A program made the position numbers and the translations under genes. The notes beneath the pieces are model-generated. The model worked only from the letters and a program-made list of their open reading frames with translations. It had not been told where the DNA came from and did no database searches. A stretch of DNA of 64,000 bases from a virus (Duplodnaviria; Caudoviricetes), in the IMG/VR virus record IMGVR_UViG_3300033068_001847, positions 96,001 to 160,000 of that record, one strand, 5' to 3'. Shown piece after piece: positions 1 through 27,754 of the stretch. Every line of letters begins with the position of its first letter. The stretch's first letter is position 1.

Positions 1-3000
1 ATAAATCTGATCCTTGGTTAATCCTTCTTTATTAACAATTGTACCTTCATAATATCCTAAAGCCATTGTAAACACAGACCATAATTTCTGTAAAGTATTT
101 CCTCTTGGTCTCTGACTTTTACCTTCAGTAGCATTATTTGTTGTTCCATAAAAAGACTCACCTAATGTCCAACCTTTATATTTAGGTTTAAGACCATGTG
201 AATTGTAGTATGGAAGTGATGCCCAAGTATTTGCTACTGTATCTAAATACTTTCTGAAATTATTTTCATTTACATTATTTAAATCTAATTTATATTTATT
301 AAACGACTCTCTGATATAATCAATTGCTCTTTTATCTTGATTAGTTGGATTAAACGGTTCATTCTTACCGCCCTTCAACCATGAAGATTGTAAAAATTGA
401 TATCTACCAGCAGCAGAAGGAAAATTATGTCCTAATTTATAATCTCTATTCCAAGGATTTATTAAAGTTCCACCATATAGTGTGTTATAACCATTATCTG
501 ATTTAATTAATAATACACCCTCAGCAAAAGCAATAACATCTAAAAATGCTTTCTCTTTATTTGTTAATACTGGATTAGTATTTCTTCCGATTAAATCAAT
601 ATCTTTTTTAGGTTTACCTGTATTTAATCCAGAATTATATACAGATCCACCATTTAAACCACTTGCACTACCAATATCTATGTTAGAAACAATTGTATAA
701 TTAGTTACATATGGTTTTGGTACTTTTGGTACTCTAACACCCTTAAATACTGAACTAATACTGTTAGGTGTTATTTTATGATTTACTTCCAGAATTAAAT
801 AAGTACCTTTAAACATTGCTACATTTTTTAAATCAAAGTACATGGTCGGTTGAATCATCATATTTCCCATCATACTGAAAGTAGCTGTATAACTTCTTTG
901 TTGATATGTATTAAATAAACTATTGGATGCGGTAGTTGATGAATTCTGATCACTGTTAGCAATTTTATCTAATAAAATAATACTTTCATTGGTTTCCTTG
1001 TATTCCAACTGATCTAATTCTAATCCATAAAAGAAACTTTGATTATGTGTACCAAAATCTACATTGAATGCTTGTACTGCATCCGTTTTTAAATCTACAA
1101 TTTTATCATAATCATCACTATCATTTTTATGACTATCTCCGTTAGAAATATTAATGTCTAACTGTGAAGATGTTCCTCCAATATACATACAAATGAATTT
1201 AGGTTTAGTCTTAGTATTTACATTATGATTTGTTCCAAATACAGTTTGTATATTACTATTACTCCATAAAAGACCGCTTTCATTATAATTTATATATGAA
1301 GGTAGAGCAAAAAATTCAAAATTATTTTTAGTTAATAAATTTAATAATAATGTATAAATACTAGTATCTGCACTAGTTTGAGTTGAATATAACGGTGAAA
1401 GATCTAACATTACATCTTCACCAATATTATTAAACGATCTATCGACCATCAAAAAGTTTTCCATAGAGAGCATATTATCAATCTCATCAGGGGTATTCAA
1501 CATCCATTTATCTACAAAACTTTTAAAATTATAATATAACTCAGTTTTAAGATCTGCATTATCAATTTTTGATTTAACTTCAGACTTTTGATTATTAATT
1601 TCTTTCTTAACAATATTTTTAGATACTAGTAGTTCAGACTTTAATACATTAAAATATTCATTATATAATGTAAAATCATCTCTAAAATCAGGATTATAAT
1701 TATTATTATAATTAAACATTCTATAATCACCTACACTCATATATTTTATTTCAGTGAATTCTATTACAAAATCTGTAGCAAAGAATTCATCAATTCTATT
1801 TCCTTTTTCTTTTTCAGCATTTTTTAATTTTAACATGAAAGTACCTGTAGGATCAGAATATAAGTTATTATATTTGTTTTTAAAATTAGTATAGTAACTT
1901 ATGAATTGAGTTTTTATAAAATCAGGTATTTTTTGCCACTTAGTTACATTAGTTTTATATACTGGATATTTCTGAGTTATTACATTTAAATTTGATAATA
2001 TGAATCCCCAAGCTATTAAAACAAAATGTGGAATTTCATGGATTGCAGAAGTCCTTTTGAAATTAGGTATATCAAAAGGTGGTATTATGTGATTATCTAT
2101 TTGTAGTAGATTATCAATAAACATCTTCTCCATTAAGTTATCAAATGATGTTGCAGAACTCAATCCTGTTGTTTCTTTGAAATAGAATACTTCACCACTA
2201 ACAAATTCACTCTTATTAACAAATCCACCTTTCATTTTTTGATCAATGAAAAACGGTACATTATATTGTGATAAATAACCATTATCCTTATTTAATTTCT
2301 TTAAAGTATCATTATATTTTACAATATATTCATTATAATTACCAACTGGTGTACTAACCAACTCTGTTGATTCTTTTAATACTGGTGTACCTAAATATGC
2401 ATCAAAATCAGAACTATTTCTTATTTTAAATAAAGTATCACTATTATATTTATAATCAATTGAATCTCTGGATACTTGTTTTAAATTATCAAGTATTGGT
2501 ATTGAATTAAACTTAAAATCTGGACTATTAATCTGCTGTATAAAGGCATCTAATAACTTTTCCTTACCTTGAAGCACTGTTAATATATTCATTGCTTCCA
2601 GTTTAGCATGTGCGTTAACAAGTATCTTACCGTTCCTACCAGCTAATGAATCAAAATTATTTGTAATATTCAATAATATAAGACCACGATATATTATTTT
2701 ATATAATATATTATCTTTTGTGGCATCTAAATATTCATTTGGTACATCTAATATACTATCAAAAGGATTAATTGGTACGAATGTATATTCTTCATTAGTA
2801 TTTGGCTCAAAATTAATATCACTACTTGCTTTATTTAAAGCACTAACTTTCATTTTAGCGTTAATATAATTATTTACAAATACAACCTCAGCCCAAGTAG
2901 GATCTTTTGGTATTGATTTAACTTTTTTATTATTACTGTCTAATACGTAATAATCAGGAAAAGCATATTTAGGTTCTTCACCATGACTTGTATCGTTATT

Positions 3001-4233
3001 ACCATCACGTTCTTTCTCTGCATTAATTACAACACTTTTAAGTTCAGTAAAGAACCTTTTAGCATCATTAACAATAATACTTAATATATTTGCAAGTGTT
3101 GGACCGCCTTTAAGTTCACTATAAACTAATTTAGTTACATTTTCATCTATTTGTTTTTGACGTTGATAAATAATTACATCATTCTTATCAATAACTTGAC
3201 GAATATTTTTATCTACATTAGTTAAATCTATAGAAAAAACTTTAACATATTGATCATTTGTGAATTCAATTACTGGTAAATTTTCATATGCTGGAATATC
3301 CTTAATTATTTTAACAGCTATATTATTTTCTTTGAAGAATGTTTTTTTATCACTGATCGCAGATAGTAAATTTTCATAAACTGTTTGGTTTGGGTAATGC
3401 TCTGTAGCTAATACTTTATACTTGTAACTTACATGTATTATATTACTATTATTTTTATCCCTATTTACATAGATCAAATTATTTTGTCCTGTTGTAATAT
3501 CAGCAACATTTTTAATATCACTTATAAACCTCTCTTGGTAATTATTGCAGACTTCTAGTAGCTGACTATTTTTAAATGTTATATCATTTAAAAATTTACT
3601 ATCCTCTGCCGTTGCTGTTTTAATAATTGTTGATAATTGATTTGATTTATTTTTAAGCTCCCAAAATGTATTTGTTGCACTATCATTTAATAAAGTATTT
3701 TCATTTAAATACGGTGCAACTTCTAAATAATCCACATATAAATCTGCTAGTGGTGCAAACGTCATACCTACAAAACTAGCACTGATCTCAAAACTATTAT
3801 TATTAACAAATTTGGTTGATTGTTTTACTAAATGTAATCTATATGTAACTGATTGTCCATAATACCCCTTTAATGTTAAATCAAAAATAGGTGGTGGCAT
3901 ATCAAATATCACTTGATATTTTGAATCATGAAAATTATTAAATAAAGCTTGTCCCCTAACATCTTCGAAAATAATATCTACTTGAGGTACGTAAGAAGAT
4001 GTTATTTTAAAATCAATACTTTTAATACCGAAATTCTCTTTATTATCAGTCCAATCAGTAGTAAATTCTCCATTACTATTTGCTCCAATAAAATTAATGA
4101 TCAGAGGTTTATCGTTATTTAATTTACCTAACCTATTTCTTTTGGTTACTTTAAGTTCGGCATAAAAACTAAGATCATCTAACTTAACACTCTCACCATT
4201 ACTAAAAACACTATGTGGATCAATATTTCCCAT
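1..4233 (-). CDS. Large baseplate hub / tail-associated protein with C-proximal lambda-type (GH104) muramidase domain; runs off the window edge
   Basis: Absent from the ORF track, consistent with its stop lying outside the window. ATG at 4233 (MGNIDPHSVF...). In-frame motifs KAFLDVIAFAEG (~555-520) and PSAAGRYQFL (420-391) are typical of phage-lambda-like lysozymes. Lies downstream of tape measure and baseplate genes. I did not check every codon by hand. Confidence 0.8.
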   Translation of the reverse strand, partial: MGNIDPHSVFSNGESVKLDDLSFYAELKVTKRNRLGKLNNDKPLIINFIGANSNGEFTTDWTDNKENFGIKSIDFKITSSYVPQVDIIFEDVRGQALFNNFHDSKYQVIFDMPPPIFDLTLKGYYGQSVTYRLHLVKQSTKFVNNNSFEISASFVGMTFAPLADLYVDYLEVAPYLNENTLLNDSATNTFWELKNKSNQLSTIIKTATAEDSKFLNDITFKNSQLLEVCNNYQERFISDIKNVADITTGQNNLIYVNRDKNNSNIIHVSYKYKVLATEHYPNQTVYENLLSAISDKKTFFKENNIAVKIIKDIPAYENLPVIEFTNDQYVKVFSIDLTNVDKNIRQVIDKNDVIIYQRQKQIDENVTKLVYSELKGGPTLANILSIIVNDAKRFFTELKSVVINAEKERDGNNDTSHGEEPKYAFPDYYVLDSNNKKVKSIPKDPTWAEVVFVNNYINAKMKVSALNKASSDINFEPNTNEEYTFVPINPFDSILDVPNEYLDATKDNILYKIIYRGLILLNITNNFDSLAGRNGKILVNAHAKLEAMNILTVLQGKEKLLDAFIQQINSPDFKFNSIPILDNLKQVSRDSIDYKYNSDTLFKIRNSSDFDAYLGTPVLKESTELVSTPVGNYNEYIVKYNDTLKKLNKDNGYLSQYNVPFFIDQKMKGGFVNKSEFVSGEVFYFKETTGLSSATSFDNLMEKMFIDNLLQIDNHIIPPFDIPNFKRTSAIHEIPHFVLIAWGFILSNLNVITQKYPVYKTNVTKWQKIPDFIKTQFISYYTNFKNKYNNLYSDPTGTFMLKLKNAEKEKGNRIDEFFATDFVIEFTEIKYMSVGDYRMFNYNNNYNPDFRDDFTLYNEYFNVLKSELLVSKNIVKKEINNQKSEVKSKIDNADLKTELYYNFKSFVDKWMLNTPDEIDNMLSMENFLMVDRSFNNIGEDVMLDLSPLYSTQTSADTSIYTLLLNLLTKNNFEFFALPSYINYNESGLLWSNSNIQTVFGTNHNVNTKTKPKFICMYIGGTSSQLDINISNGDSHKNDSDDYDKIVDLKTDAVQAFNVDFGTHNQSFFYGLELDQLEYKETNESIILLDKIANSDQNSSTTASNSLFNTYQQRSYTATFSMMGNMMIQPTMYFDLKNVAMFKGTYLILEVNHKITPNSISSVFKGVRVPKVPKPYVTNYTIVSNIDIGSASGLNGGSVYNSGLNTGKPKKDIDLIGRNTNPVLTNKEKAFLDVIAFAEGVLLIKSDNGYNTLYGGTLINPWNRDYKLGHNFPSAAGRYQFLQSSWLKGGKNEPFNPTNQDKRAIDYIRESFNKYKLDLNNVNENNFRKYLDTVANTWASLPYYNSHGLKPKYKGWTLGESFYGTTNNATEGKSQRPRGNTLQKLWSVFTMALGYYEGTIVNKEGLTKDQIY

Positions 4234-4568: not shown

Positions 4569-6986
4569 TTATATTTTATTGTAGACTTCAGTATTAGCAT
4601 AGAAATTATAATCTAATGCTGTTTGAAGTTTATTAACTGGACCACTAAGGCTACTACCACCTATTATGTTACAAGACATGTTCACTCTACATAACATCGG
4701 TTGCATACCTATACCTTCTGGATTCATATCCCATAATAGTGGTTCGTAATCAAAAGATATATTATTAATAATTATTTTAGTGTTAAAAAAATCACCTATT
4801 CTCAATACACAAACAGGTGGTCTACCAAATATTCCGTTTGAAACTGTACTACCTGAGAGTACAGTGCCTTGCTTTAAACACTGCTGTAAAAAAGTCACTC
4901 TAGTATTTAAATCCTCTGGAGTTTGGGAATGGAATACAGGGTGAAAATATTTAATATTATCACTATATGTTTTAAGTAAATTATCAGTTAACTCATCATT
5001 AGCTGTTGCTAATAATACATCTTCGTTTTGATTATATCTTTCGAAATAAAACTCATCAGAAGGATTAATAACTACTTCAGGTATTACTATTGGATCTTCA
5101 AATAAAGAACGTTGTTGATTTTTAATATCGGTTATAGTTGTATTCAATTTAGGATTTGCTTTAAGATATACATAACTTCTTCTATCCACAACATCTTCAT
5201 TTACTGTATTAACAGTAGAATTTTGATTTTTAGCTCTTTCCTCTCCGTAGAAATTAATAGTGAACTTATCATTTTTATATTGATCTAATGTAGGTTGTAC
5301 TCCATCAGAAAATACTTTATCATATGATCTCAATTTATAATTATCAATATTCGTTAAATTTGATTCAATTCTATTATATAAACTCTTACCTCTAAAAAAT
5401 GATAATAATTTATTATATTTTGCATTATCAAGTTTACTTGTGAATGTATCTATTACCACTTGATATTTCTTACCTTCTTCTGTATTTAAGAAAGCAATAA
5501 GATCATTAATACGGGCATTGAAATCATTAATAGCTTTTTGACCAGTACCAACATTATTATCTTGTGTTAACGTAGTCTTTAAAGTATAATCATTATTATC
5601 ATAATAATACTTCAATGCTTGATTAAGAGCAAAGGGGTTATTACCTGATGATAATGGTTTTGGTTTTTCAACTGGTCTTTCCTCTACCTTCTTAACATCT
5701 ATTTTACTTTTCTCCGTTGTTGATAAATTTTTAGTTAAAATATTATCTTGTTTAAAGAATTTATTATGTTCGTTGTTACTCTTATTTTTCCAACTAAATT
5801 TATTTAATTCAGAAGGGTAATCAGCAATTAGAACAAAACTAATTACACATTGACGTTCAGAACCATTATATGTATATATCGGTTCACTTCTACCAATGAA
5901 AGTTACTTTATCCCATCCTGCACTACTATTCTCACTTATTTGAAGATCATATGGTGCAAACCACATAACTCTTCCACCATTTGCTCCATGTTCTGAAGGT
6001 TTGATATCAATCTTAGCATCTTTGTAGGCTAAATTCTCAATTGAGAACATTAAATTTTTAACATCAGTTTCATTAATTGGTGCAATATTTGGGAATACAG
6101 TTTGTAATACTGAATTAGTTCCAGCATAACCATGATTATATTTCATTAAATCAGATGTTGAACCATACTTATTTTGTTTAGTAAATACTCGTAAGAATTT
6201 ACTTCCACTGTCATCAGTAGTAGTTCCACCACCTTTAGGAATTAACTTCATTTCACCATCATCACCAATATGTTTGAAAATCTTTGCAGTTGGATTGAGT
6301 TTATCCCCCGGATATTGAATAGATGGATCTGCTGGAATACCATCAGATAAACTATTTTGATTTAATAACTCATTAGTTTTAAATAATAAAGATTCTTCAA
6401 TTTGACCTTTCTTGATGCTTGCAGCATCCATATCATCTTTACCGTATTGACTATCTAATTGATCTCTATATTGATTTCTATTGATATTTTTTTGATATTC
6501 ATCTTGATATCCTTCACCTCTATTCTTTTTTAACCAATTATTACTATCTTCGTGACTGAAGTTTGAACCAATGAATGGTACGGGATTCACATCCCGTTGA
6601 TAACCTAACATAACTTGAACTAGATCAGAAAATGATTGTTTTTCTTTTCCTGATATATTCCAGTAGTTAGCTGGTTTGTTGATGTTAAAATCAATTATAT
6701 TTGATTGAGTAACACTTGGTAGTAGATTTGTACGTAGGTTTTGACCTACTCTTACAGCTAAAGCTTTAGCTAATTCTCTGTTAGCTACTTGTTGGATTGG
6801 AGTATTAGGTAATAATACTCTACTTAGTAGTGTATTTGAGAAATCAAAAGAATTGTTTGTAGCTAAACTACCAATAGTTGAAATAGTATTATTTAACCTA
6901 TTATTATCCAAACTGTATACATTCTTAGGATTGTATAGATTTAAAGATTCTAATATATTTAAATATGGTTGAGATGGTATAGGCAT
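4569..6986 (-). CDS. Baseplate / tail-tube-initiator-like structural protein
   Basis: 805 aa; FIGRSEPIYTY and GRPPVCVLRIGDFFNTKIII motifs of tube-fold baseplate proteins; late motif at 7005-7012. Confidence 0.55.
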   Translation of the reverse strand: MPIPSQPYLNILESLNLYNPKNVYSLDNNRLNNTISTIGSLATNNSFDFSNTLLSRVLLPNTPIQQVANRELAKALAVRVGQNLRTNLLPSVTQSNIIDFNINKPANYWNISGKEKQSFSDLVQVMLGYQRDVNPVPFIGSNFSHEDSNNWLKKNRGEGYQDEYQKNINRNQYRDQLDSQYGKDDMDAASIKKGQIEESLLFKTNELLNQNSLSDGIPADPSIQYPGDKLNPTAKIFKHIGDDGEMKLIPKGGGTTTDDSGSKFLRVFTKQNKYGSTSDLMKYNHGYAGTNSVLQTVFPNIAPINETDVKNLMFSIENLAYKDAKIDIKPSEHGANGGRVMWFAPYDLQISENSSAGWDKVTFIGRSEPIYTYNGSERQCVISFVLIADYPSELNKFSWKNKSNNEHNKFFKQDNILTKNLSTTEKSKIDVKKVEERPVEKPKPLSSGNNPFALNQALKYYYDNNDYTLKTTLTQDNNVGTGQKAINDFNARINDLIAFLNTEEGKKYQVVIDTFTSKLDNAKYNKLLSFFRGKSLYNRIESNLTNIDNYKLRSYDKVFSDGVQPTLDQYKNDKFTINFYGEERAKNQNSTVNTVNEDVVDRRSYVYLKANPKLNTTITDIKNQQRSLFEDPIVIPEVVINPSDEFYFERYNQNEDVLLATANDELTDNLLKTYSDNIKYFHPVFHSQTPEDLNTRVTFLQQCLKQGTVLSGSTVSNGIFGRPPVCVLRIGDFFNTKIIINNISFDYEPLLWDMNPEGIGMQPMLCRVNMSCNIIGGSSLSGPVNKLQTALDYNFYANTEVYNKI

Positions 6987-18881: not shown

Positions 18882-20003
18882 TTAGTGTATGTAAATTCCA
18901 AGTGGTGAATAACCTAATATTTTATTTAATTGTTCAGCTTCATTTGCACGTTTGGTTAATTGTGTTTCATAGCTTAGTCCATCTAATCTTTCTTTTAGTT
19001 CAGCTTTTAACGCTTCAACTTCTGATCTACCATCTTCCAGAAGGAAAGAATAATCCATTTGGATAGAAGCATCAGTTATATCAATATTACCACTATATTT
19101 ACCACGAATTAATCCTAATAATTTTTTAGCTTCAGCTAGTAAATAACGTCTGATCCATGTTTTAGAACTTGCATTTAATTTACCCCATTTAAGATTCTCA
19201 ATTGGAACATCTGAAGGTCTGGTAATAACAGCTAAATCCGCATTATCACTTAAACATTTACTCTTGTTTTTAGAATTTGTTTCATAATAAAAATACCAAA
19301 CTTGCATTCCATCTGCATTACTAGAAAAATAACTTCCTAGACCTCTTGGTTGATATTTACCTCCCGGTACTGGATATAAGTGTAATATTTTACTTCCATC
19401 TGCTTTTCCAGTAATTCTATAAGATAATTCACTCTTCATGATTTTATTCTTCATAGATCTATCAGAAGCTGCAAGTAAAGATGAATAAGCTGGAGCAACA
19501 TAACCAAACATAGTACCACCGTAACCCCACCCCCATTCATTTGCAGACCAACCTACAGGGTTTAAAGTATCATAAGCCATAAAAGATGGAGTCGCCCAAA
19601 TAACTTCATTAACTTCTCTACCTTTAGGTATTGGATAAAATTGTGTATTAGCACTTAGTATTATACAGTCTTTCTTTAATTCCCAACTTTCACCTGCTGG
19701 AGCATTAGTACCTAAACCTACCTGTCTTGAATATGCATAAGAAAATGATTTAGCAAAACTTAAATCCTTAGTAGAGAAAGCAACATTAAAATCAGAATCT
19801 TCAATACTTAATCCAGATAATGTAGACCATTGCTGATCAACTAACCAATCATTAATATATTGGGAATAATCTTCTAATGCATTACAGAATAAAGTATCTA
19901 ATTGTTCATCTGTAAGTTCTACATTACGAACACCCATACCTAATTGATGATATATGTTTTTAAATAATTTTTCTCTCTCTGGTGCGGTTATTAATGTTGC
20001 CAT
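18882..20003 (-). CDS. Neck / head-tail adaptor protein (T4 gp13-like)
   Basis: LG...VELTDEQLD N-terminus; WIRRYLLAEAKKLLGLIRGKY C-terminal motif. Confidence 0.8.
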   Translation of the reverse strand: MATLITAPEREKLFKNIYHQLGMGVRNVELTDEQLDTLFCNALEDYSQYINDWLVDQQWSTLSGLSIEDSDFNVAFSTKDLSFAKSFSYAYSRQVGLGTNAPAGESWELKKDCIILSANTQFYPIPKGREVNEVIWATPSFMAYDTLNPVGWSANEWGWGYGGTMFGYVAPAYSSLLAASDRSMKNKIMKSELSYRITGKADGSKILHLYPVPGGKYQPRGLGSYFSSNADGMQVWYFYYETNSKNKSKCLSDNADLAVITRPSDVPIENLKWGKLNASSKTWIRRYLLAEAKKLLGLIRGKYSGNIDITDASIQMDYSFLLEDGRSEVEALKAELKERLDGLSYETQLTKRANEAEQLNKILGYSPLGIYIH

Positions 20004-20108: not shown

Positions 20109-20759
20109 ATGAAAAGTAGAATTAACTTAGATGTTGACTATGCAGGTCAACCATGTATTAAAATTAATCTTCAATCAAGTGAAGATATAAGAGATAAAAC
20201 CTTAACAAGGTTACTCAATCAAGTTGAATATCCTAATAATAACGGTTACAAAATAAAATTCCCGAAAAATATCTTTGTTATCGAAGAGGATTTTGATAAT
20301 AGTAGCTGTTCAAGTGGTTATGGTGAACCGGGAATAACTAAAACTCTAGTACCTATAGATCGAATAGTAGCTCAAAAATTAGGGATGATAGATCCACGCA
20401 CTTCACATTGTGATAATACTCCAGTTCGTTCTTCAATAATTGATGATATAAATAGAGTAAGAGACTTATATAGATTACTAAATTTAGAAACGTCAGATAT
20501 TGATAGAATTGAGAATATTTTGGAAACTGTACCACATTTTAAAAATAAATTAAATAAATACACATTAATCGAATATCCACAGTTTAATACTAAAGTTTTA
20601 TCTTATATTAATGAAAATGATTTCAGTGAACATATATTGATAGATAATGGAAAAATTATGAGTAAATATGATTTTGAAGAGAATTATTTAGGTAAGGTAA
20701 ATCTATCAGATACCCAAGGTTTTAATAACTCACAACAAATATCTGAAAGAATAGAATAA
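20109..20759 (+). CDS. Hypothetical protein
   Basis: 216-aa ORF with A-rich upstream region. Confidence 0.6.
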   Translation: MKSRINLDVDYAGQPCIKINLQSSEDIRDKTLTRLLNQVEYPNNNGYKIKFPKNIFVIEEDFDNSSCSSGYGEPGITKTLVPIDRIVAQKLGMIDPRTSHCDNTPVRSSIIDDINRVRDLYRLLNLETSDIDRIENILETVPHFKNKLNKYTLIEYPQFNTKVLSYINENDFSEHILIDNGKIMSKYDFEENYLGKVNLSDTQGFNNSQQISERIE

Positions 20760-20762
20760 AAA

Positions 20763-20793
20763 TTTGTAAATTAGAATATTTATACTATATTTG
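20763..20793 (+). promoter_or_regulatory. Bacteroidota sigma70-type promoter for tRNA-Glu/tRNA-Leu unit
   Basis: TTTG 20763-66, 19-nt spacer, TATATTTG 20786-93. Confidence 0.8.
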
Positions 20794-20866
20794 CATCAGT
20801 CTAAACATAATTGAAGTTACTCACTTGAATATTGAAACAATACTTTAATTGATTATTAGACATTTT

Positions 20867-20938
20867 GGACCGTTCGTCTAGGGGTTAGGACACGACATTT
20901 TCGATGTTGGAACAGGGGTTCGATTCCCCTACGGTCTA
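20867..20938 (+). tRNA. trnE: tRNA-Glu (TTC)
   Basis: Acceptor GGACCGT/ACGGTCT; anticodon arm CGACA-TTTTCGA-TGTTG; T arm AGGGG-TTCGATT-CCCCT; no encoded CCA. Confidence 0.93.
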
Positions 20939-20953
20939 CATATTATTGAATGT

Positions 20954-21184
20954 ATGAAATTACGATCAGCACAACAATTACATATCGAATGTTCAGTTGA
21001 AGAACTACAACAATTTATGATTGAAGAATTTAAAAAGAAAGGTTTTCTTGTTGGTGCAGATGATGTTAAAGTTATTAATTCAAATTTCATAGAGAAAGAT
21101 ACTACAGAATATGGTGATCACTTCCCATCTTCAAAAGTGGTTGGGTTAGAAATAACTATTGAATATGATGTAAAAGAACAATAA
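20954..21184 (+). CDS. Hypothetical protein between tRNAs
   Basis: 76-aa ORF. Confidence 0.55.
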   Translation: MKLRSAQQLHIECSVEELQQFMIEEFKKKGFLVGADDVKVINSNFIEKDTTEYGDHFPSSKVVGLEITIEYDVKEQ

Positions 21185-21281
21185 TTAATTTTTAAAAAGG
21201 GGAATGTTATACTCCGAATACGGAAAGCAAGAAAAGATAACACTCACTTGCGCTATTAGTTATTCTAAATATTAATTATTT

Positions 21282-21361
21282 GCTCGAATGGTGGAATTGG
21301 TAGACACGCAGGACTTAAAATCCTGTCCGAAAGGGTGCGAGTTCGATTCTCGCTTCGAGTA
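21282..21361 (+). tRNA. trnL: tRNA-Leu (TAA)
   Basis: GCTCGAA/TTCGAGT acceptor; CAGGA-CTTAAAA-TCCTG anticodon arm; variable arm; GTTCGATT T loop. Confidence 0.93.
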
Positions 21362-21389
21362 CTAAAAAATTTACTAGATATTTATGATA

Positions 21390-21632
21390 ATGAAAACGTT
21401 ATCAGAACAAATATATAGGATGAATGAATTAGCAGGAGTTATTGTTGAAGCAAATAAAACTCCTTGTCAAACACCAGATTCAACATTTCATACAGAAGTA
21501 AAAGATAATAAGATAACTTGTAGTGTAGATCTACCAATGGATTTAAATCTATCACCAGCAGATGCTAAAATATTAGAAACAAACATTCATAATGCAATGG
21601 AATTAGTTTTAGCCCCATATTTTAAAAAATAA
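21390..21632 (+). CDS. Small late protein (MKTLSEQIYRMNELAG...)
   Basis: TATTTAT late motif at 21379-85 on the + strand; likely start 21390. Confidence 0.6.
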   Translation: MKTLSEQIYRMNELAGVIVEANKTPCQTPDSTFHTEVKDNKITCSVDLPMDLNLSPADAKILETNIHNAMELVLAPYFKK

Positions 21633-21675
21633 TAACACTGATAATCAACAAGTTATAAAATAAATATAAATAAAG

Positions 21676-21706
21676 TTTGCAAATTTAAAATATTTACTTA
21701 CATTTG
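21676..21706 (+). promoter_or_regulatory. Bacteroidota sigma70-type promoter driving leader peptide and tRNA array
   Basis: TTTG 21676-79, 19-nt spacer, TACATTTG 21699-706; matches TTTG-N19-21-TAnnTTTG. Confidence 0.85.
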
Positions 21707-21726
21707 TACTATATATAATTAATAAA

Positions 21727-21834
21727 ATGAAAAATTTAAATACATATCACCGCTCTAGTTCGCTGCAACCGTATCAACACAGTTGCCCTGAAGTGGGTGC
21801 GTTAATATGTAAAGGAGGTGGAAGTACTATTTAA
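21727..21834 (+). CDS. Putative attenuator leader peptide, 35 aa (MKNLNTYHRSSSLQPYQHSCPEVGALICKGGGSTI)
   Basis: ATG after A-rich AATAAA; below the ORF-track size cutoff; codons 7-21 correspond to the nine downstream tRNAs; followed by a terminator. Confidence 0.8.
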   Translation: MKNLNTYHRSSSLQPYQHSCPEVGALICKGGGSTI

Positions 21835-21897
21835 ATACTGAAACACAATATATAAAGATGCACCCCAAGGATAATAGGATTCTTGGGGTTTTTCTTT
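21741..21897 (+). promoter_or_regulatory. Transcription attenuator (alternative 1:2, 2:3 antiterminator, 3:4 terminator)
   Basis: 1:2 = TACATAT-CACC (21741-51) with GGTG...ATATGTA (21796-811). 2:3 = GGGTGCGTT..TATGT (21795-810) with ATATA..GATGCACCC (21850-65). 3:4 = terminator. Confidence 0.75.
21862..21897 (+). terminator. Intrinsic terminator between leader and tRNA array
   Basis: ACCCCAAGGAT / ATTCTTGGGGT stem (21862-72/21879-89), then TTTTCTTT. Confidence 0.85.
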
Positions 21898-21914
21898 GGA
21901 AGAAACTTTTAAAT

Positions 21915-21989
21915 GACTATATGGCTGAGTGGTCAAAGGCAACGGTCTGCAAAACCGTAAAACCGTTGGTTCAAATCCAACTATAGTCT
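21915..21989 (+). tRNA. trnC: tRNA-Cys (GCA)
   Basis: GACTATA/TATAGTC acceptor; ACGGT-CTGCAAA-ACCGT; U73 discriminator. Confidence 0.93.
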
Positions 21990-22000
21990 CAGAAGAATAA

Positions 22001-22073
22001 CGGGTAGTAGGGAAGTTGGTATCCCGCCACATTTGGGATGTGGAGATCGCAGGTTCGAGTCCTGCTTACCCGA
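22001..22073 (+). tRNA. trnP: tRNA-Pro (TGG)
   Basis: CGGGTAG/TTACCCG; CCACA-TTTGGGA-TGTGG; GCAGG-TTCGAGT-CCTGC. Confidence 0.94.
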
Positions 22074-22096
22074 CTGGTTATGGGTTCACAATAGAC

Positions 22097-22105
22097 GTTC
22101 TTTGA
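22097..22105 (+). promoter_or_regulatory. boxA-like antitermination element (GTTCTTTGA)
   Basis: Resembles the rrn boxA core; lies in the Pro-Ser spacer. Confidence 0.4.
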
Positions 22106-22119
22106 ATGGAATTGTACTT

Positions 22120-22202
22120 GGAAGATTGGCAGAGTGGTCGATTGCGCTAGTCTTGAAAACTAGAGGATGAAAGTCCCAAAGGTTCGAATCCTTTATCTTC
22201 CG
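22120..22202 (+). tRNA. trnS: tRNA-Ser (TGA)
   Basis: GGAAGAT/ATCTTCC; CTAGT-CTTGAAA-ACTAG; long variable arm; G73. Confidence 0.94.
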
Positions 22203-22207
22203 CAAAC

Positions 22208-22321
22208 ATAAAAGGTTACCCTGCTTGTTCCGTATGGGGTTATAAATGTGTATAAGTTAACGGAACTCCTGTGGTGTTGCAGCCTAAAAATTGCACTAAA
22301 TATACTGAACAGACCTTTTAT
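22208..22321 (+). ncRNA. Candidate structured ncRNA within tRNA array (unassigned)
   Basis: Closing stem ATAAAAGGT/ACCTTTTAT; internal stems GTTCCGT/ACGGAAC and TGCAG/TTGCA; not a cloverleaf. Confidence 0.4.
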
Positions 22322-22341
22322 CTTTATAAAAAATAGAAATA

Positions 22342-22509
22342 ATGAATAAAAATGAAAAAAAGAAACAGAAATTAAAAGAACGTATTAATGCTTTGGAGCA
22401 GATCGTATTGTTATCATTAACTAAAAAAAGTTCGAATGAAACAGAAATTAATGTACCAGCATATCAACGACAAATAAATGATCTCAAAAAAGAATTGAGA
22501 GATTTATAA
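22342..22509 (+). CDS. Small coiled-coil hypothetical protein (55 aa)
   Basis: MNKNEKKKQKLKERINALE...QINDLKKELRDL; below ORF-track cutoff. Confidence 0.55.
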   Translation: MNKNEKKKQKLKERINALEQIVLLSLTKKSSNETEINVPAYQRQINDLKKELRDL

Positions 22510-22515
22510 TAAAAG

Positions 22516-22596
22516 GGGAGTGTTCCAGAGCGGTCAAATGGGACGGACTGTAAATCCGTTACTTCGGTTTCGTAGGTTCGAATCCTTCCACTCCCA
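22516..22596 (+). tRNA. trnY: tRNA-Tyr (GTA)
   Basis: GGGAGTG/CACTCCC; ACGGA-CTGTAAA-TCCGT; variable arm. Confidence 0.93.
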
Positions 22597-22601
22597 CAAT
22601 T

Positions 22602-22673
22602 AGTCTATTAGTTCAACGGATAGAATACCTGACTACGGATCAGGTGATAGGAGTTCGAATCTTCTATGGACTA
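22602..22673 (+). tRNA. trnR: tRNA-Arg (ACG)
   Basis: AGTCTAT/ATGGACT; CCTGA-CTACGGA-TCAGG. Confidence 0.92.
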
Positions 22674-22680
22674 CAAGAAT

Positions 22681-22760
22681 GCCCTTGTGACTTATGCAAA
22701 CTGGTACAGCTACGAGCCTTAGAACCTCGGTTTTTGAGAGTTCGAATCTCTCCAAGGGTA
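22681..22760 (+). tRNA. trnL: tRNA-Leu (TAG), atypical
   Basis: GCCCTTG/CAAGGGT acceptor; CGAGC-CTTAGAA-CCTCG (one C-C mismatch); GAGAG-TTCGAAT-CTCTC; enlarged D region; short variable loop. Confidence 0.8.
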
Positions 22761-22771
22761 CTTAAAATAAA

Positions 22772-22963
22772 ATGAAAATGATAACAGATATCAGATATAA
22801 CGAAGATGGTAAATTATATGCAAAATTATTAGGACATATAGATATTTACGGAACTGACTTAAATGATTTAAGAACAGCAGCTAGAGAAGCGTTTACATGT
22901 TTCTGTATAATTGCTGAAACTCATGGTCAGGGACTACAGCAGGAATTAGAAGGTTTAATCTAA
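22772..22963 (+). CDS. Small hypothetical protein (weak HicB-N-like pattern)
   Basis: 63-aa ORF; DGKLYA...GTDLNDLRTAAREA spacing recalls HicB N-terminal domains. Confidence 0.5.
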   Translation: MKMITDIRYNEDGKLYAKLLGHIDIYGTDLNDLRTAAREAFTCFCIIAETHGQGLQQELEGLI

Positions 22964-22968
22964 TATTT

Positions 22969-23042
22969 TGTTCTGTAGTGTAACTGGTTAACACGTCTGA
23001 TTTTGGTTCAGAAGATTCTAAGTTCGAACCTTAGCAGAACAA
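22969..23042 (+). tRNA. trnQ: tRNA-Gln (TTG)
   Basis: TGTTCTG/CAGAACA; TCTGA-TTTTGGT-TCAGA. Confidence 0.93.
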
Positions 23043-23104
23043 CGGGTTAGACTGTTAATAATTCATAGACTGTCATAAAAACATGGAGCGTAGAATTATA
23101 ATAT

Positions 23105-23178
23105 GGTAAATGTAGCTTAATTGGTAGAGCATCAGCTTGTGGCGTTGAGAGGTGGGGGTTCGATTCCCCTCGTTTACC
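23105..23178 (+). tRNA. trnH: tRNA-His (GTG)
   Basis: G-1:C73 pair; TCAGC-TTGTGGC-GTTGA; GGGGG-TTCGATT-CCCCT. Confidence 0.93.
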
Positions 23179-23185
23179 CAAAATT

Positions 23186-23268
23186 GGAGAATTGTCAGAG
23201 CGGTCTATCGTGCTTCTTTGCTAAAGAAGTGTGTGAAAGCACCACAGGTTCGAATCCTGTATTCTCCG
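23186..23268 (+). tRNA. trnS: tRNA-Ser (GCT)
   Basis: GGAGAAT/ATTCTCC; CTTCT-TTGCTAA-AGAAG; long variable arm; G73. Confidence 0.93.
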
Positions 23269-23285
23269 CTTAATTACCACAAATG

Positions 23286-23314
23286 TGCGGAGAATGTATC
23301 ACTTATTCTCCGCA
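23286..23314. terminator. Hairpin between convergent tRNA array and late genes
   Basis: TGCGGAGAAT/ATTCTCCGCA 10-bp stem; weak U-tracts. Confidence 0.5.
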
Positions 23315-23321
23315 TTAAATT

Positions 23322-24791
23322 TTAAGTTATAGGAAAACGATTATAACTAGCCATTGGTATAGAAGAATTACTTACAGTATCCCCATTCTGATATTTATAA
23401 GTTAATTTATCGGTTGCGCTGACAGTATTTGTACATTGTAATGTCCATGTAGTACCTGTACCAGAAATACCAGTAACTGGATTATCTGTAACACCTGTTA
23501 CATCTGTTACCACATATGCTTCATATAATGTTTGTACCATCGGAGAATCATAAACTAAAAGTACGGTAGTCCCACTAGCAGTTGCAGAAGTGATTTGTGG
23601 GAGTACAACATCTGTATTAGGATCAATTATAAAAGGATTTTCTGCATACATATTTATTAACCCTGTAGCACTATTAAATTTTACCTCAGCATTAGGAACA
23701 TTAGATTCTACTGTAACACTGATAATAGATGCGTCTGCATTCTGTACAGTAAAGGATGTATTAAAATAAACCAAATGTCTTTCTATTCCACTATATGATA
23801 AATAAGTATATAGTTTATTACCTACTATCTTGTATTGTTTATAAACACCCCTTCTAACTAATTCATAATCAAGAGCTTCTTGTGCTGTATAAATACCTGC
23901 ATTTTCATAATTAGCATGATCTTTAATTATATTACACATTGTGTGAAAGTTAGTAAGAGTATCATCCTCCCCAAGTATACCATGATAAAAATATGGCATA
24001 TATCCAAAAGCATCCCCTATACCAGTACAAGCAGCATAATGGGTATTAACTTGAGTTTCAAAATCATCAATGGCGGTTTGATTAATAGTATTACCGACAT
24101 AATATCTATAATATAGATGTCTTGTGGTATTCATTAAAGTAGGAAACCATCTATTACTAAAACCATAACCATCATCCATACCTGCTACACCCCAAGTACT
24201 CATCCAAATAGGAACATAATTAAGTGGACCTGATGCAGCATAACCAGCATCAGCACTTGGAACTACTCCCGTAGTAGCTAATAATCCAAATTTCTCCCAA
24301 AACTTTTTAGTGTTTAGGGTAATCTCACTATATAAATTAAATCCACCATGATTATAACCATGATTTGTTGGATAACATAATCTATGACCTATTACAATTG
24401 GGTTACCAGTAGTTTCTTTAGAAAATATAGGAATTAATTGTGACCACTTTGCAGCATTAGGATTACCAGAATCTTCATCATGGTCTGGATTAGCATTAAG
24501 AGCTATATTAAATTTAGCTGGTCTTTGATTTCCACAACCATCTGAATAAGTCCAAAGAGGGTAAGTATTACCATCTGCTGTTTCTACACCTTGTAAGTAT
24601 TTATGTAAATAAGTATTGTCTGATGGACCAGCATCATCAGTATATGGTATAAATCCAGTCGTCTTACCTTCTGGCATCTTATTATGTGATAAGACTACAG
24701 AAGGATTAGGTGGTGTATCAAATTCAGTTATAATAGTTATAAGTTGACTATTTTTAACTACTGGTATTTCAAAATTACCTTCTATATTCAT
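23322..24791 (-). CDS. Polysaccharide deacetylase-like (NodB/CE4-type) protein with C-terminal beta-sandwich domain
   Basis: YTDDAGP resembles TFDDGP and NHGYNH resembles HxxxH; Thr/Val-rich C-terminus; in a late operon. Confidence 0.5.
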   Translation of the reverse strand: MNIEGNFEIPVVKNSQLITIITEFDTPPNPSVVLSHNKMPEGKTTGFIPYTDDAGPSDNTYLHKYLQGVETADGNTYPLWTYSDGCGNQRPAKFNIALNANPDHDEDSGNPNAAKWSQLIPIFSKETTGNPIVIGHRLCYPTNHGYNHGGFNLYSEITLNTKKFWEKFGLLATTGVVPSADAGYAASGPLNYVPIWMSTWGVAGMDDGYGFSNRWFPTLMNTTRHLYYRYYVGNTINQTAIDDFETQVNTHYAACTGIGDAFGYMPYFYHGILGEDDTLTNFHTMCNIIKDHANYENAGIYTAQEALDYELVRRGVYKQYKIVGNKLYTYLSYSGIERHLVYFNTSFTVQNADASIISVTVESNVPNAEVKFNSATGLINMYAENPFIIDPNTDVVLPQITSATASGTTVLLVYDSPMVQTLYEAYVVTDVTGVTDNPVTGISGTGTTWTLQCTNTVSATDKLTYKYQNGDTVSNSSIPMASYNRFPIT

Positions 24792-27079: not shown

Positions 27080-27111
27080 TTTGTAAATTAAAAAATTTAA
27101 TACTATATTTG
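27080..27111 (+). promoter_or_regulatory. Bacteroidota sigma70-type promoter
   Basis: TTTG 27080-83, 20-nt spacer, TATATTTG 27104-11. Confidence 0.8.
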
Positions 27112-27118
27112 CCATGTT

Positions 27119-27754
27119 ATGAAAGAGTATTTATATAAATATAAAAAAACATATCATTTAGACTTTTCAGAATCAATTACCAGTGATGATAAGATATTGA
27201 AAAGTGTAGATCACTTCCTTGGTAAAAGAATTATTGTGACTGAAAAGATGGATGGAGAATGTACATCTGTTTATACTAATTACTATCATGCCCGTTCATT
27301 GGAATCAGCAAATCATCCTTCCCAAAATCTAATCAAAGGATATTGGGCAGAACGACAATACTTAATACCTGAAGGTTGGCGAGTATGTGGTGAAAATTTA
27401 TATGCACAACATTCAATTATATATGATAATCTTGATGCTTATTTTTATTGTTTTAATACTTGGAATGATAAGAATGAATGTTTATCTTATGATGAAACTT
27501 TAGAATGGTGTGAGTTATTAAATATTGTACATGTACCAGTTTTATATGATGGGATATTTGATTATGATCTCGTTAAAAAGATTTATTTAGATTTAAATAA
27601 AGATTTACATGAGGGTATTGTAATTAGATTAGCAGATTCATTTCATTATAAAGATTTCAGCAAATCATTAGCTAAAGCGGTAAGAAAAAATCATGTTACT
27701 ACAGATGAACATTGGTCTAAACAAGTTATTATACCAAATAAATTAAAACAGTAA
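27119..27754 (+). CDS. ATP-dependent RNA ligase (RNA_ligase family)
   Basis: Motif I TEKMDGE, GENLYAQHSI, EGIVIR, KAVR. Confidence 0.85.
   Translation: MKEYLYKYKKTYHLDFSESITSDDKILKSVDHFLGKRIIVTEKMDGECTSVYTNYYHARSLESANHPSQNLIKGYWAERQYLIPEGWRVCGENLYAQHSIIYDNLDAYFYCFNTWNDKNECLSYDETLEWCELLNIVHVPVLYDGIFDYDLVKKIYLDLNKDLHEGIVIRLADSFHYKDFSKSLAKAVRKNHVTTDEHWSKQVIIPNKLKQ

Follow-up and report, generated by a model that had tools for sequence, protein, structure and literature searches.

The window analysed here is a 64,000-nt stretch of viral DNA, bases 96001-160000 of a 184,209-bp record with a G+C content of 29% (IMGVR_UViG_3300033068_001847). The products encoded in the window include a tail sheath, a portal, a large terminase and a T4-like major head protein. 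The head protein is only ~32% identical to those of the nearest GenBank phages, suggesting that the record represents an uncultured myovirus without close cultured relatives. GenBank phages showed similarity to the window at the tRNA level only. All ten tRNA genes of the genome detected by ARAGORN and Rfam are located on the + strand between 20867 and 23269. Two of these, tRNA-Glu(UUC) and tRNA-Leu(UAA) (20867-21362), lie outside the control region of the element described here. The other eight are preceded by a motif match to a Bacteroidota-type promoter (TTTG, 19 nt, TAnnTTTG; 21676-21706, +), a 35-codon leader ORF (21727-21834, +) and an intrinsic terminator (21862-21897, +). The terminator comprises an 11-bp stem (21862-21889) followed by the U-run TTTTTCTTT, and is positioned between the leader ORF and the first tRNA gene, 18 nt ahead of tRNA-Cys.

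Downstream of the terminator, tRNA-Cys(GCA), tRNA-Pro(UGG) and tRNA-Ser(UGA) (21915-22203, +) are followed by a 55-aa ORF (22342-22509, +), tRNA-Tyr(GUA) and tRNA-Arg(ACG) (22516-22674, +), a 63-aa ORF (22772-22963, +) and tRNA-Gln(UUG), tRNA-His(GUG) and tRNA-Ser(GCU) (22969-23269, +). A second terminator (23285-23315, +) closes the operon, and genes on the opposite strand come next. Between tRNA-Arg and the 63-aa ORF lies a tentative tRNA-like gene with the anticodon loop UAG (Leu, CUN; 22681-22761, +), whose Rfam score of 19.8 bits falls short of the cut-off, 29. Its 7-bp acceptor stem and T arm are perfect, its D region is irregular and oversized, and its variable arm is short. The unit therefore comprises two small ORFs and eight tRNA genes, or perhaps nine with the tentative one, and falls outside the classical scope of attenuation, namely amino-acid biosynthesis and aminoacyl-tRNA synthetase genes. 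Neither small ORF matched a PHROG family, and no IMG/VR relative was found for the 63-aa ORF or for an 82-aa ORF upstream of the leader. A gene for a polynucleotide kinase of the RNA ligase/Pnk repair type is located a few kb downstream of the operon on the same strand. Three near-alike promoter-like boxes (TTTG, 19-20 nt, TAnnTTTG) were observed on the + strand at 20763-20793, 21676-21706 and 27080-27111, preceding tRNA-Glu, the leader and an ORF at 27119, respectively. A motif search found no such box inside the operon.

The leader ORF starts with Met-Lys-Asn-Leu and ends at a stop codon at 21832. It lacks a Shine-Dalgarno sequence, as is expected in Bacteroidota, and searches of its peptide against Pfam-type, NCBIfam and PHROG families found no match. 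The control codons of the element are codons 7-21 (Tyr His Arg Ser Ser Ser Leu Gln Pro Tyr Gln His Ser Cys Pro; 21745-21789, +), and 14 of the 15 are cognate to the eight downstream tRNAs. No other stretch of 15 codons, in any of the six frames of the 184-kb genome, scores as high. The Arg control codon is CGC, which accounts for 2% of the phage's Arg codons and fits tRNA-Arg(ACG), rather than the common AGA. Both Ser codon boxes occur in the leader and both Ser tRNAs occur in the operon. If the tRNA-like gene at 22681-22761 is functional, codon 13 (CTG, 2% of Leu codons) would be cognate too, giving a match of 15 of 15. Codons 7-19 represent every tRNA species of the operon except Cys. Many codons of the control region are rare for this phage (CGC, CTG, TCG, TGC, CCG and, twice, CAC), and its G+C content is 47% compared to 29% for the genome. 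The property under selection in this region could be either structure or slow decoding.

The RNA of the leader can fold into three helices, 1:2, 2:3 and 3:4, of which the last is the terminator. Segment 1 (21741-21765, +), identified from MFE folds, is the 5' arm of hairpin 1:2. Segment 2 (21786-21811, +; core GGGTGC, 21795-21800) is both the 3' arm of this hairpin and the 5' strand of an antiterminator. Segment 3 (21850-21872, +) is the antiterminator 3' strand and overlaps the terminator 5' arm at 21862-21872. An earlier reading of this DNA, made from the sequence only, had paired 21795-21803 with 21857-21865 (9 bp, two of them G-U) and 21806-10 with 21850-54, and a base-by-base reading confirmed both pairings. 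The best 2:3 duplex exceeds the proposed length, joining 21786-21804 to 21857-21871 at -17.9 kcal/mol, and was equalled in only 0.5% of cases when the upstream region was dinucleotide-shuffled 1000 times (p=0.005). Taken alone, hairpin 1:2 (21741-21811), the 2:3 hairpin (21786-21872) and the extended terminator (21853-21898) have stabilities of -22.8, -22.6 and -20.2 kcal/mol, respectively, and are thus near-isoenergetic. The MFE structure of 21727-21900 consists of the long hairpin 21741-21811 plus the terminator (-47.5 kcal/mol, z=-3.5). Antiterminator and terminator are mutually exclusive through their shared segment 3, and the antiterminator 5' strand lies within reach of a ribosome on the leader ORF.

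In folds constrained by a ribosome footprint, the antiterminator formed 13-14 pairs when the A site was on codons 2-16 and 9-10 pairs when it was on codons 17-19. The sequence-only reading had cautioned that stalls at the last control codons may be sensed poorly. This caveat proved apt, as a footprint at Cys20 left a partial antiterminator and one at Pro21 left none; a ribosome stalled at either codon would, in this model, mask segment 2. With the A site on codons 21-30 the antiterminator was blocked. In the full-length RNA at equilibrium, the terminator stem retained 9-11 of its 11 pairs whatever the position of the ribosome. In transcripts ending early, segment 3 was partly paired in most states, even without a ribosome. 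Equilibrium folds under ribosome masks failed to discriminate the states. Since the terminator is retained at equilibrium in the full-length RNA, the model depends on the kinetics of folding. Another G-rich stretch, GGAGGTGG (21814-21821, +, codons 29-32), pairs with 21861-66 in the MFE structure of a truncated transcript. In the constrained folds this pairing was not robust. The stretch is possibly a back-up antiterminator strand that a terminating ribosome would mask and that a stall at Cys20 or Pro21 would leave free.

In the collections searched, no ortholog of the window's leader was found from which covariation in its own helices could be scored, and a degenerate pattern for its first eight codons was unmatched. 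A relative of the phage is represented by the IMG/VR contig G001, whose major capsid protein is 62% identical to that of the window phage and which carries 17 tRNAs in blocks. Three of its tRNA blocks are each headed by a short ORF and a terminator. Apart from the first four codons, the sequences of these leaders are unrelated to that of the window's leader. Their compositions track their blocks, one being Pro/His/Gln and another Asp/Glu/Val/Leu/Ala/Trp. The third is rich in Lys, Thr, Tyr and Arg, and only one tRNA downstream of it, Lys(UUU), can be read before the end of the contig. In each of the three, a stretch in the 3' part of the ORF can pair with the 5' arm of that unit's terminator (p=0.021, 0.013 and 0.014), and segment 2 pairs with the control-codon region in the MFE structure before segment 3 exists. 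One relative, L035 (IMGVR_UViG_3300031521_000040), has three leader/terminator units (2910-3043, 6707-6866 and 19472-19624). Its third leader starts with Met-Arg-Thr-Phe; the Met-Lys-Asn-Leu start is thus common, not universal, and pattern scans of IMG/VR that depend on it undercount the family. In L035, the Pro/His/Gln attenuator is followed at 3044-3397 by a G+C-richer spacer of ~265 nt and a 90-nt tRNA-Pro call, which may be an insertion, an intron or an extra structured RNA.

The wider family was collected by two pattern scans of IMG/VR, in which the first four codons (Met-Lys-Asn-Leu) had to be followed 105-166 nt later by GGGTTTTT. The pattern did not call for tRNAs. One scan found at least 120 stretches and the other 49. 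Among the matches listed, 76 of 89 unique short ORFs had tRNAs downstream on the same strand, and these 76 non-redundant leaders fell into at least 22 leader families. Codons 5-22 matched the leader's own tRNA set at 0.50 among the listed matches, compared to 0.225 +/- 0.031 for permuted sets (0 of 100,000 permutations). Specificity at the level of the codon box (Leu, Arg and Ser boxes against anticodons) was suggestive only among the same matches. The 2:3 duplex was significant (p<0.05) in 72% of the 76 listed leaders, with a mean z of -2.7, and in 15 of the 22 families among the matches listed (Fisher combined p = 3e-13). It was null in 11 listed pattern matches without tRNAs (median p 0.59). 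Within the listed set, leaders paired with their own terminator arm at -12.8 kcal/mol compared to -8.6 kcal/mol with the arms of other families (0 of 20,000 permutations), and for the window's leader its own arm ranked first of 22. The promoter element TAnnTTTG was present within 60 nt upstream of 48 of 76 leaders and 1 of 13 controls among the matches listed. The same design thus recurs in many unrelated leaders. ARAGORN also reported '???' tRNA-like genes with 2- or 4-base anticodons in six arrays headed by such leaders (L055, L067, L092, L096, L113 and L207). A leader of the Pro/Gln/His type from IMG/VR had no match among GenBank phages, and a cursory look at the tRNA region of one Flavobacterium phage found no similar unit.

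These results bear on another account of the locus, in which an ordinary terminator or insulator stands before a tRNA cluster and the small ORF is there by chance or is unrelated, with no switch. Terminators are common in AT-rich intergenic regions of phages, and the preference of the full-length RNA for the terminator at equilibrium would suit such an account. However, nowhere else in the genome is the codon match as good as in the control region, the make-up of leaders varies together with the tRNA sets in 22 families among the matches listed, and each leader's 2:3 pairing is specific to the terminator of its own unit. Furthermore, listed matches that share the pattern and lack tRNAs show none of these signals. 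We therefore strongly disfavour this account and give it hardly any credence. The sequence-only reading had also put the competition between 2:3 and 3:4 under ribosome control, and this part of it is supported by the window's leader, by the three leaders of the relative G001 and by the family-wide tests.

Evidence of coding constraint on the leader ORF was obtained from a family alignment. In a 15-member family with Asp/Glu/Val/Leu/Ala/Trp leaders, 33 of 34 gap runs within the ORF were multiples of three, and gaps outside it were of arbitrary length. The 2:3 helix in this family was 88% paired with compensatory changes at the outer pairs, and its covariation score was reached by 4 of 500 shuffles. 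Segment 2 started within the short ORF in 75 of 76 leaders among the matches listed, and its end lay a median of 7 nt before the end of the ORF. An alternative is that the element senses tRNAs independently of translation, with the codons binding tRNA anticodons directly, like the specifier of a T-box, or acting as a tRNA sponge, and with the ORF unread by ribosomes. The match between codons and tRNAs, considered alone, would suit direct anticodon pairing too. This is very improbable in our view, given that a conserved ATG and a stop share the reading frame of the codons, that gaps respect this frame, and that segment 2 lies at ribosome-footprint distance from the stop in most leaders among the matches listed. 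A sensor of this kind would also carry as many as 15 distinct specifiers and lack a structure for docking tRNA, and no T-box or other Rfam match occurs in the region. Rfam leader families (His, Thr, Trp, Leu and similar) and T-box were unmatched both window-wide and in a permissive scan of 20700-23400, which returned tRNAs only.

Helix 1:2 is the weakest part of the proposed switch. The pairing put forward from sequence is present, with TACATAT (21741-47) perfectly paired to ATATGTA (21805-11) and CACC (21748-51) able to pair with GGTG (21796-99), and segment 1 overlaps the first control codons as claimed. The MFE structure, a 71-nt hairpin, retains the 7-bp outer stem; inside it, pairing of 21751-57 with 21794-21801 replaces that of CACC with GGTG. 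The claim of a complete trp-style switch stands insofar as 1:2 appears in the MFE and equals the other helices in stability. It is qualified in that the excess of 1:2 over chance is moderate and the family tests are mixed. Compared to dinucleotide shuffles, 1:2 reached p=0.043 (z=-1.7), and compared to permutations of codon order p=0.048, with segment 2 sequestered equally often in permuted and native orders. When the leader was recoded synonymously according to the codon usage of the phage, 7.5 kcal/mol of structure was lost (p=0.005), a result that selection for rare codons that are read slowly could explain as well. Among the matches listed, a family-wide duplex test of 1:2 was not significant. 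Transcripts of the listed family members up to segment 3 were structured (mean z -2.3), and their segment 2 was for the most part paired to upstream sequence. Listed control matches without tRNAs also had a negative mean z (-1.4).

Another reading is an attenuator with two helices, in which only the choice between 2:3 and 3:4 matters and a ribosome in transit or at the stop occupies segment 2 or 3. Helix 1:2 would then be a by-product of C-rich control codons lying opposite a G-rich segment 2. This explanation agrees with the non-significant family test among the matches listed, with the finding that upstream pairing of segment 2 is equally frequent in permuted and native codon orders, and with the median of 7 nt between segment 2 and the ORF end in the listed leaders, where a terminating ribosome would mask segment 2 without any help from 1:2. 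Most family members have their stop codon within or just after segment 2. In the window's leader, by contrast, 28 nt separate segment 2 from the stop codon, too far for a terminating ribosome, whose footprint would span ~21817-21846, to cover the segment. As a ribosome in this position cannot mask segment 2, helix 1:2 would be functionally necessary in the window's leader for termination under ample supply. The 7.5 kcal/mol cost of synonymous recoding (p=0.005) and the upstream pairing of segment 2 in the structured family transcripts (mean z -2.3 among the matches listed) also argue against the two-helix explanation, which we consider unlikely, though it deserves serious weight.

We propose that the element is a ribosome-mediated, leader-peptide transcription attenuator ahead of a phage tRNA operon, and put the probability of this reading, drawn from sequence, at roughly 0.6. 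The phage probably transcribes the tRNAs of the operon only if ribosomes run short of them. Transcription would start at the Bacteroidota-type promoter, and a ribosome would load onto the 35-codon ORF. When all cognate aminoacyl-tRNAs are ample, the ribosome would reach the stop codon at 21832 and 1:2 would re-form behind it. Segment 3 would then be left to segment 4, and RNA polymerase would terminate at 21890-97. A shortage of any of the tRNA species that decode codons 7-19 would make the ribosome stall, either over segment 1 or within the 1:2 loop. Segment 2 (21786-21804) would be free to capture segment 3 (21857-21871) as it emerges, so that the terminator could not form. The eight, perhaps nine, tRNA genes and the two small ORFs would then be transcribed. 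The fresh tRNAs would relieve the stall, closing a negative feedback loop. Candidate triggers of the stall would be codon supply, amino-acid starvation or host tRNA cleavage.

The last of these triggers leads to a variant in which the attenuator works as modelled and its natural trigger is host defence or shut-off, with anticodon nucleases or tRNA degradation acting during infection. The element would then be a damage sensor that replaces cleaved host tRNAs rather than a gauge of codon demand. The polynucleotide kinase gene of the RNA ligase/Pnk type a few kb downstream on the same strand is in line with this variant. Phage tRNAs have also been proposed, in published work, to counter tRNA-targeting defences (PMC10264068). 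However, the sequence holds nothing that separates one trigger from another, and the leader spans eight or nine tRNA species. We know of no single nuclease that targets as many. A host-defence trigger seems to us rather improbable as the natural one.

The proposed attenuator, with supply of the operon's own tRNAs as its input, can be compared to several known systems. In enterobacteria, leader-peptide attenuators include the multivalent thr (Thr/Ile) and ilvGMEDA (Leu/Val/Ile) elements as well as those of trp, his, leu and pheA. In such systems (PMC3082878; PMC1183508), a translated short ORF with control codons is coupled to alternative helices and a terminator, and stalling favours the antiterminator. 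The window's element resembles the attenuators of enterobacterial amino-acid operons in its ORF with control codons, its alternative 2:3 and 3:4 helices with a putative 1:2, and its terminator before the first regulated gene, and shares no sequence homology with them. Unlike these, it would regulate tRNAs rather than biosynthetic enzymes, so that the sensor would read the supply of its own products. Its single leader spans seven amino acids, corresponding to eight or nine tRNA species, and gives each between one and three codons, whereas the enterobacterial leaders use codon runs. To our knowledge, no natural leader is more multiplexed than this one, with seven amino acids in 15 codons. Its promoter is of the Bacteroidota type, it lacks a Shine-Dalgarno sequence, and its stop lies 28 nt beyond segment 2; in trp the terminating ribosome masks segment 2, which it could not do in the window's leader.

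Closer in its target is the pheST attenuator of E. coli with its pheM leader, which controls an aminoacyl-tRNA synthetase and senses charged tRNA. It shares with the window leader-peptide attenuation of a gene of the translation apparatus. In pheST, however, one amino acid is sensed and the regulated gene encodes a protein, whereas the window's regulated genes are tRNA genes. An attenuated tRNA-Phe gene of E. coli was considered as a precedent and rejected, as K-12 pheV with ~105 nt of upstream sequence showed no leader ORF. T-box riboswitches also convert tRNA status into a choice between terminator and antiterminator upstream of translation-related genes. They bind uncharged tRNA directly without translation, through a specifier loop and a conserved T-box sequence, and the window has no such structure. 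The nearest biology found is a long tRNA gene array in Anabaena that is induced under translational stress (PMC8421152). As proposed for the window's operon, its extra tRNA genes are silent by default and become active once translation falters. The array lies on a cyanobacterial chromosome, and the text of PMC8421152 contains no attenuator, leader or terminator terms, suggesting that its control differs from the mechanism proposed here. Full-text literature searches found no published account of leader-peptide control of tRNA genes. The mechanism itself is classical; the novelty lies in which genes are regulated, in sensing that is self-referential and in the extent of multiplexing.

We think it fairly probable that uncultured phages with Bacteroidota-type promoters, many of them on contigs of 100-500 kb, keep tRNA arrays under an undescribed class of multiplexed leader-peptide attenuators, of which the window's element is one member. 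If so, each array would be headed by a test ORF written in the codons of its own tRNAs and wired to a terminator/antiterminator switch. The supply of tRNAs would be demand-driven and self-limiting, and the switch could possibly serve as a sensor of host tRNA depletion. Why phages carry and control tRNA genes has been debated for decades, with codon compensation, replacement of degraded host tRNAs and evasion of anticodon nucleases among the explanations. An attenuator that reads the codons of its own tRNAs would be direct evidence for on-demand tRNA supply, and would turn the question into a testable one, namely which shortage opens which array. The at least 22 leader families in IMG/VR form a ready set of natural codon-specific sensors. 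If the proposal is correct, classical attenuation would be extended from amino-acid operons to the RNA genes of the translation apparatus.
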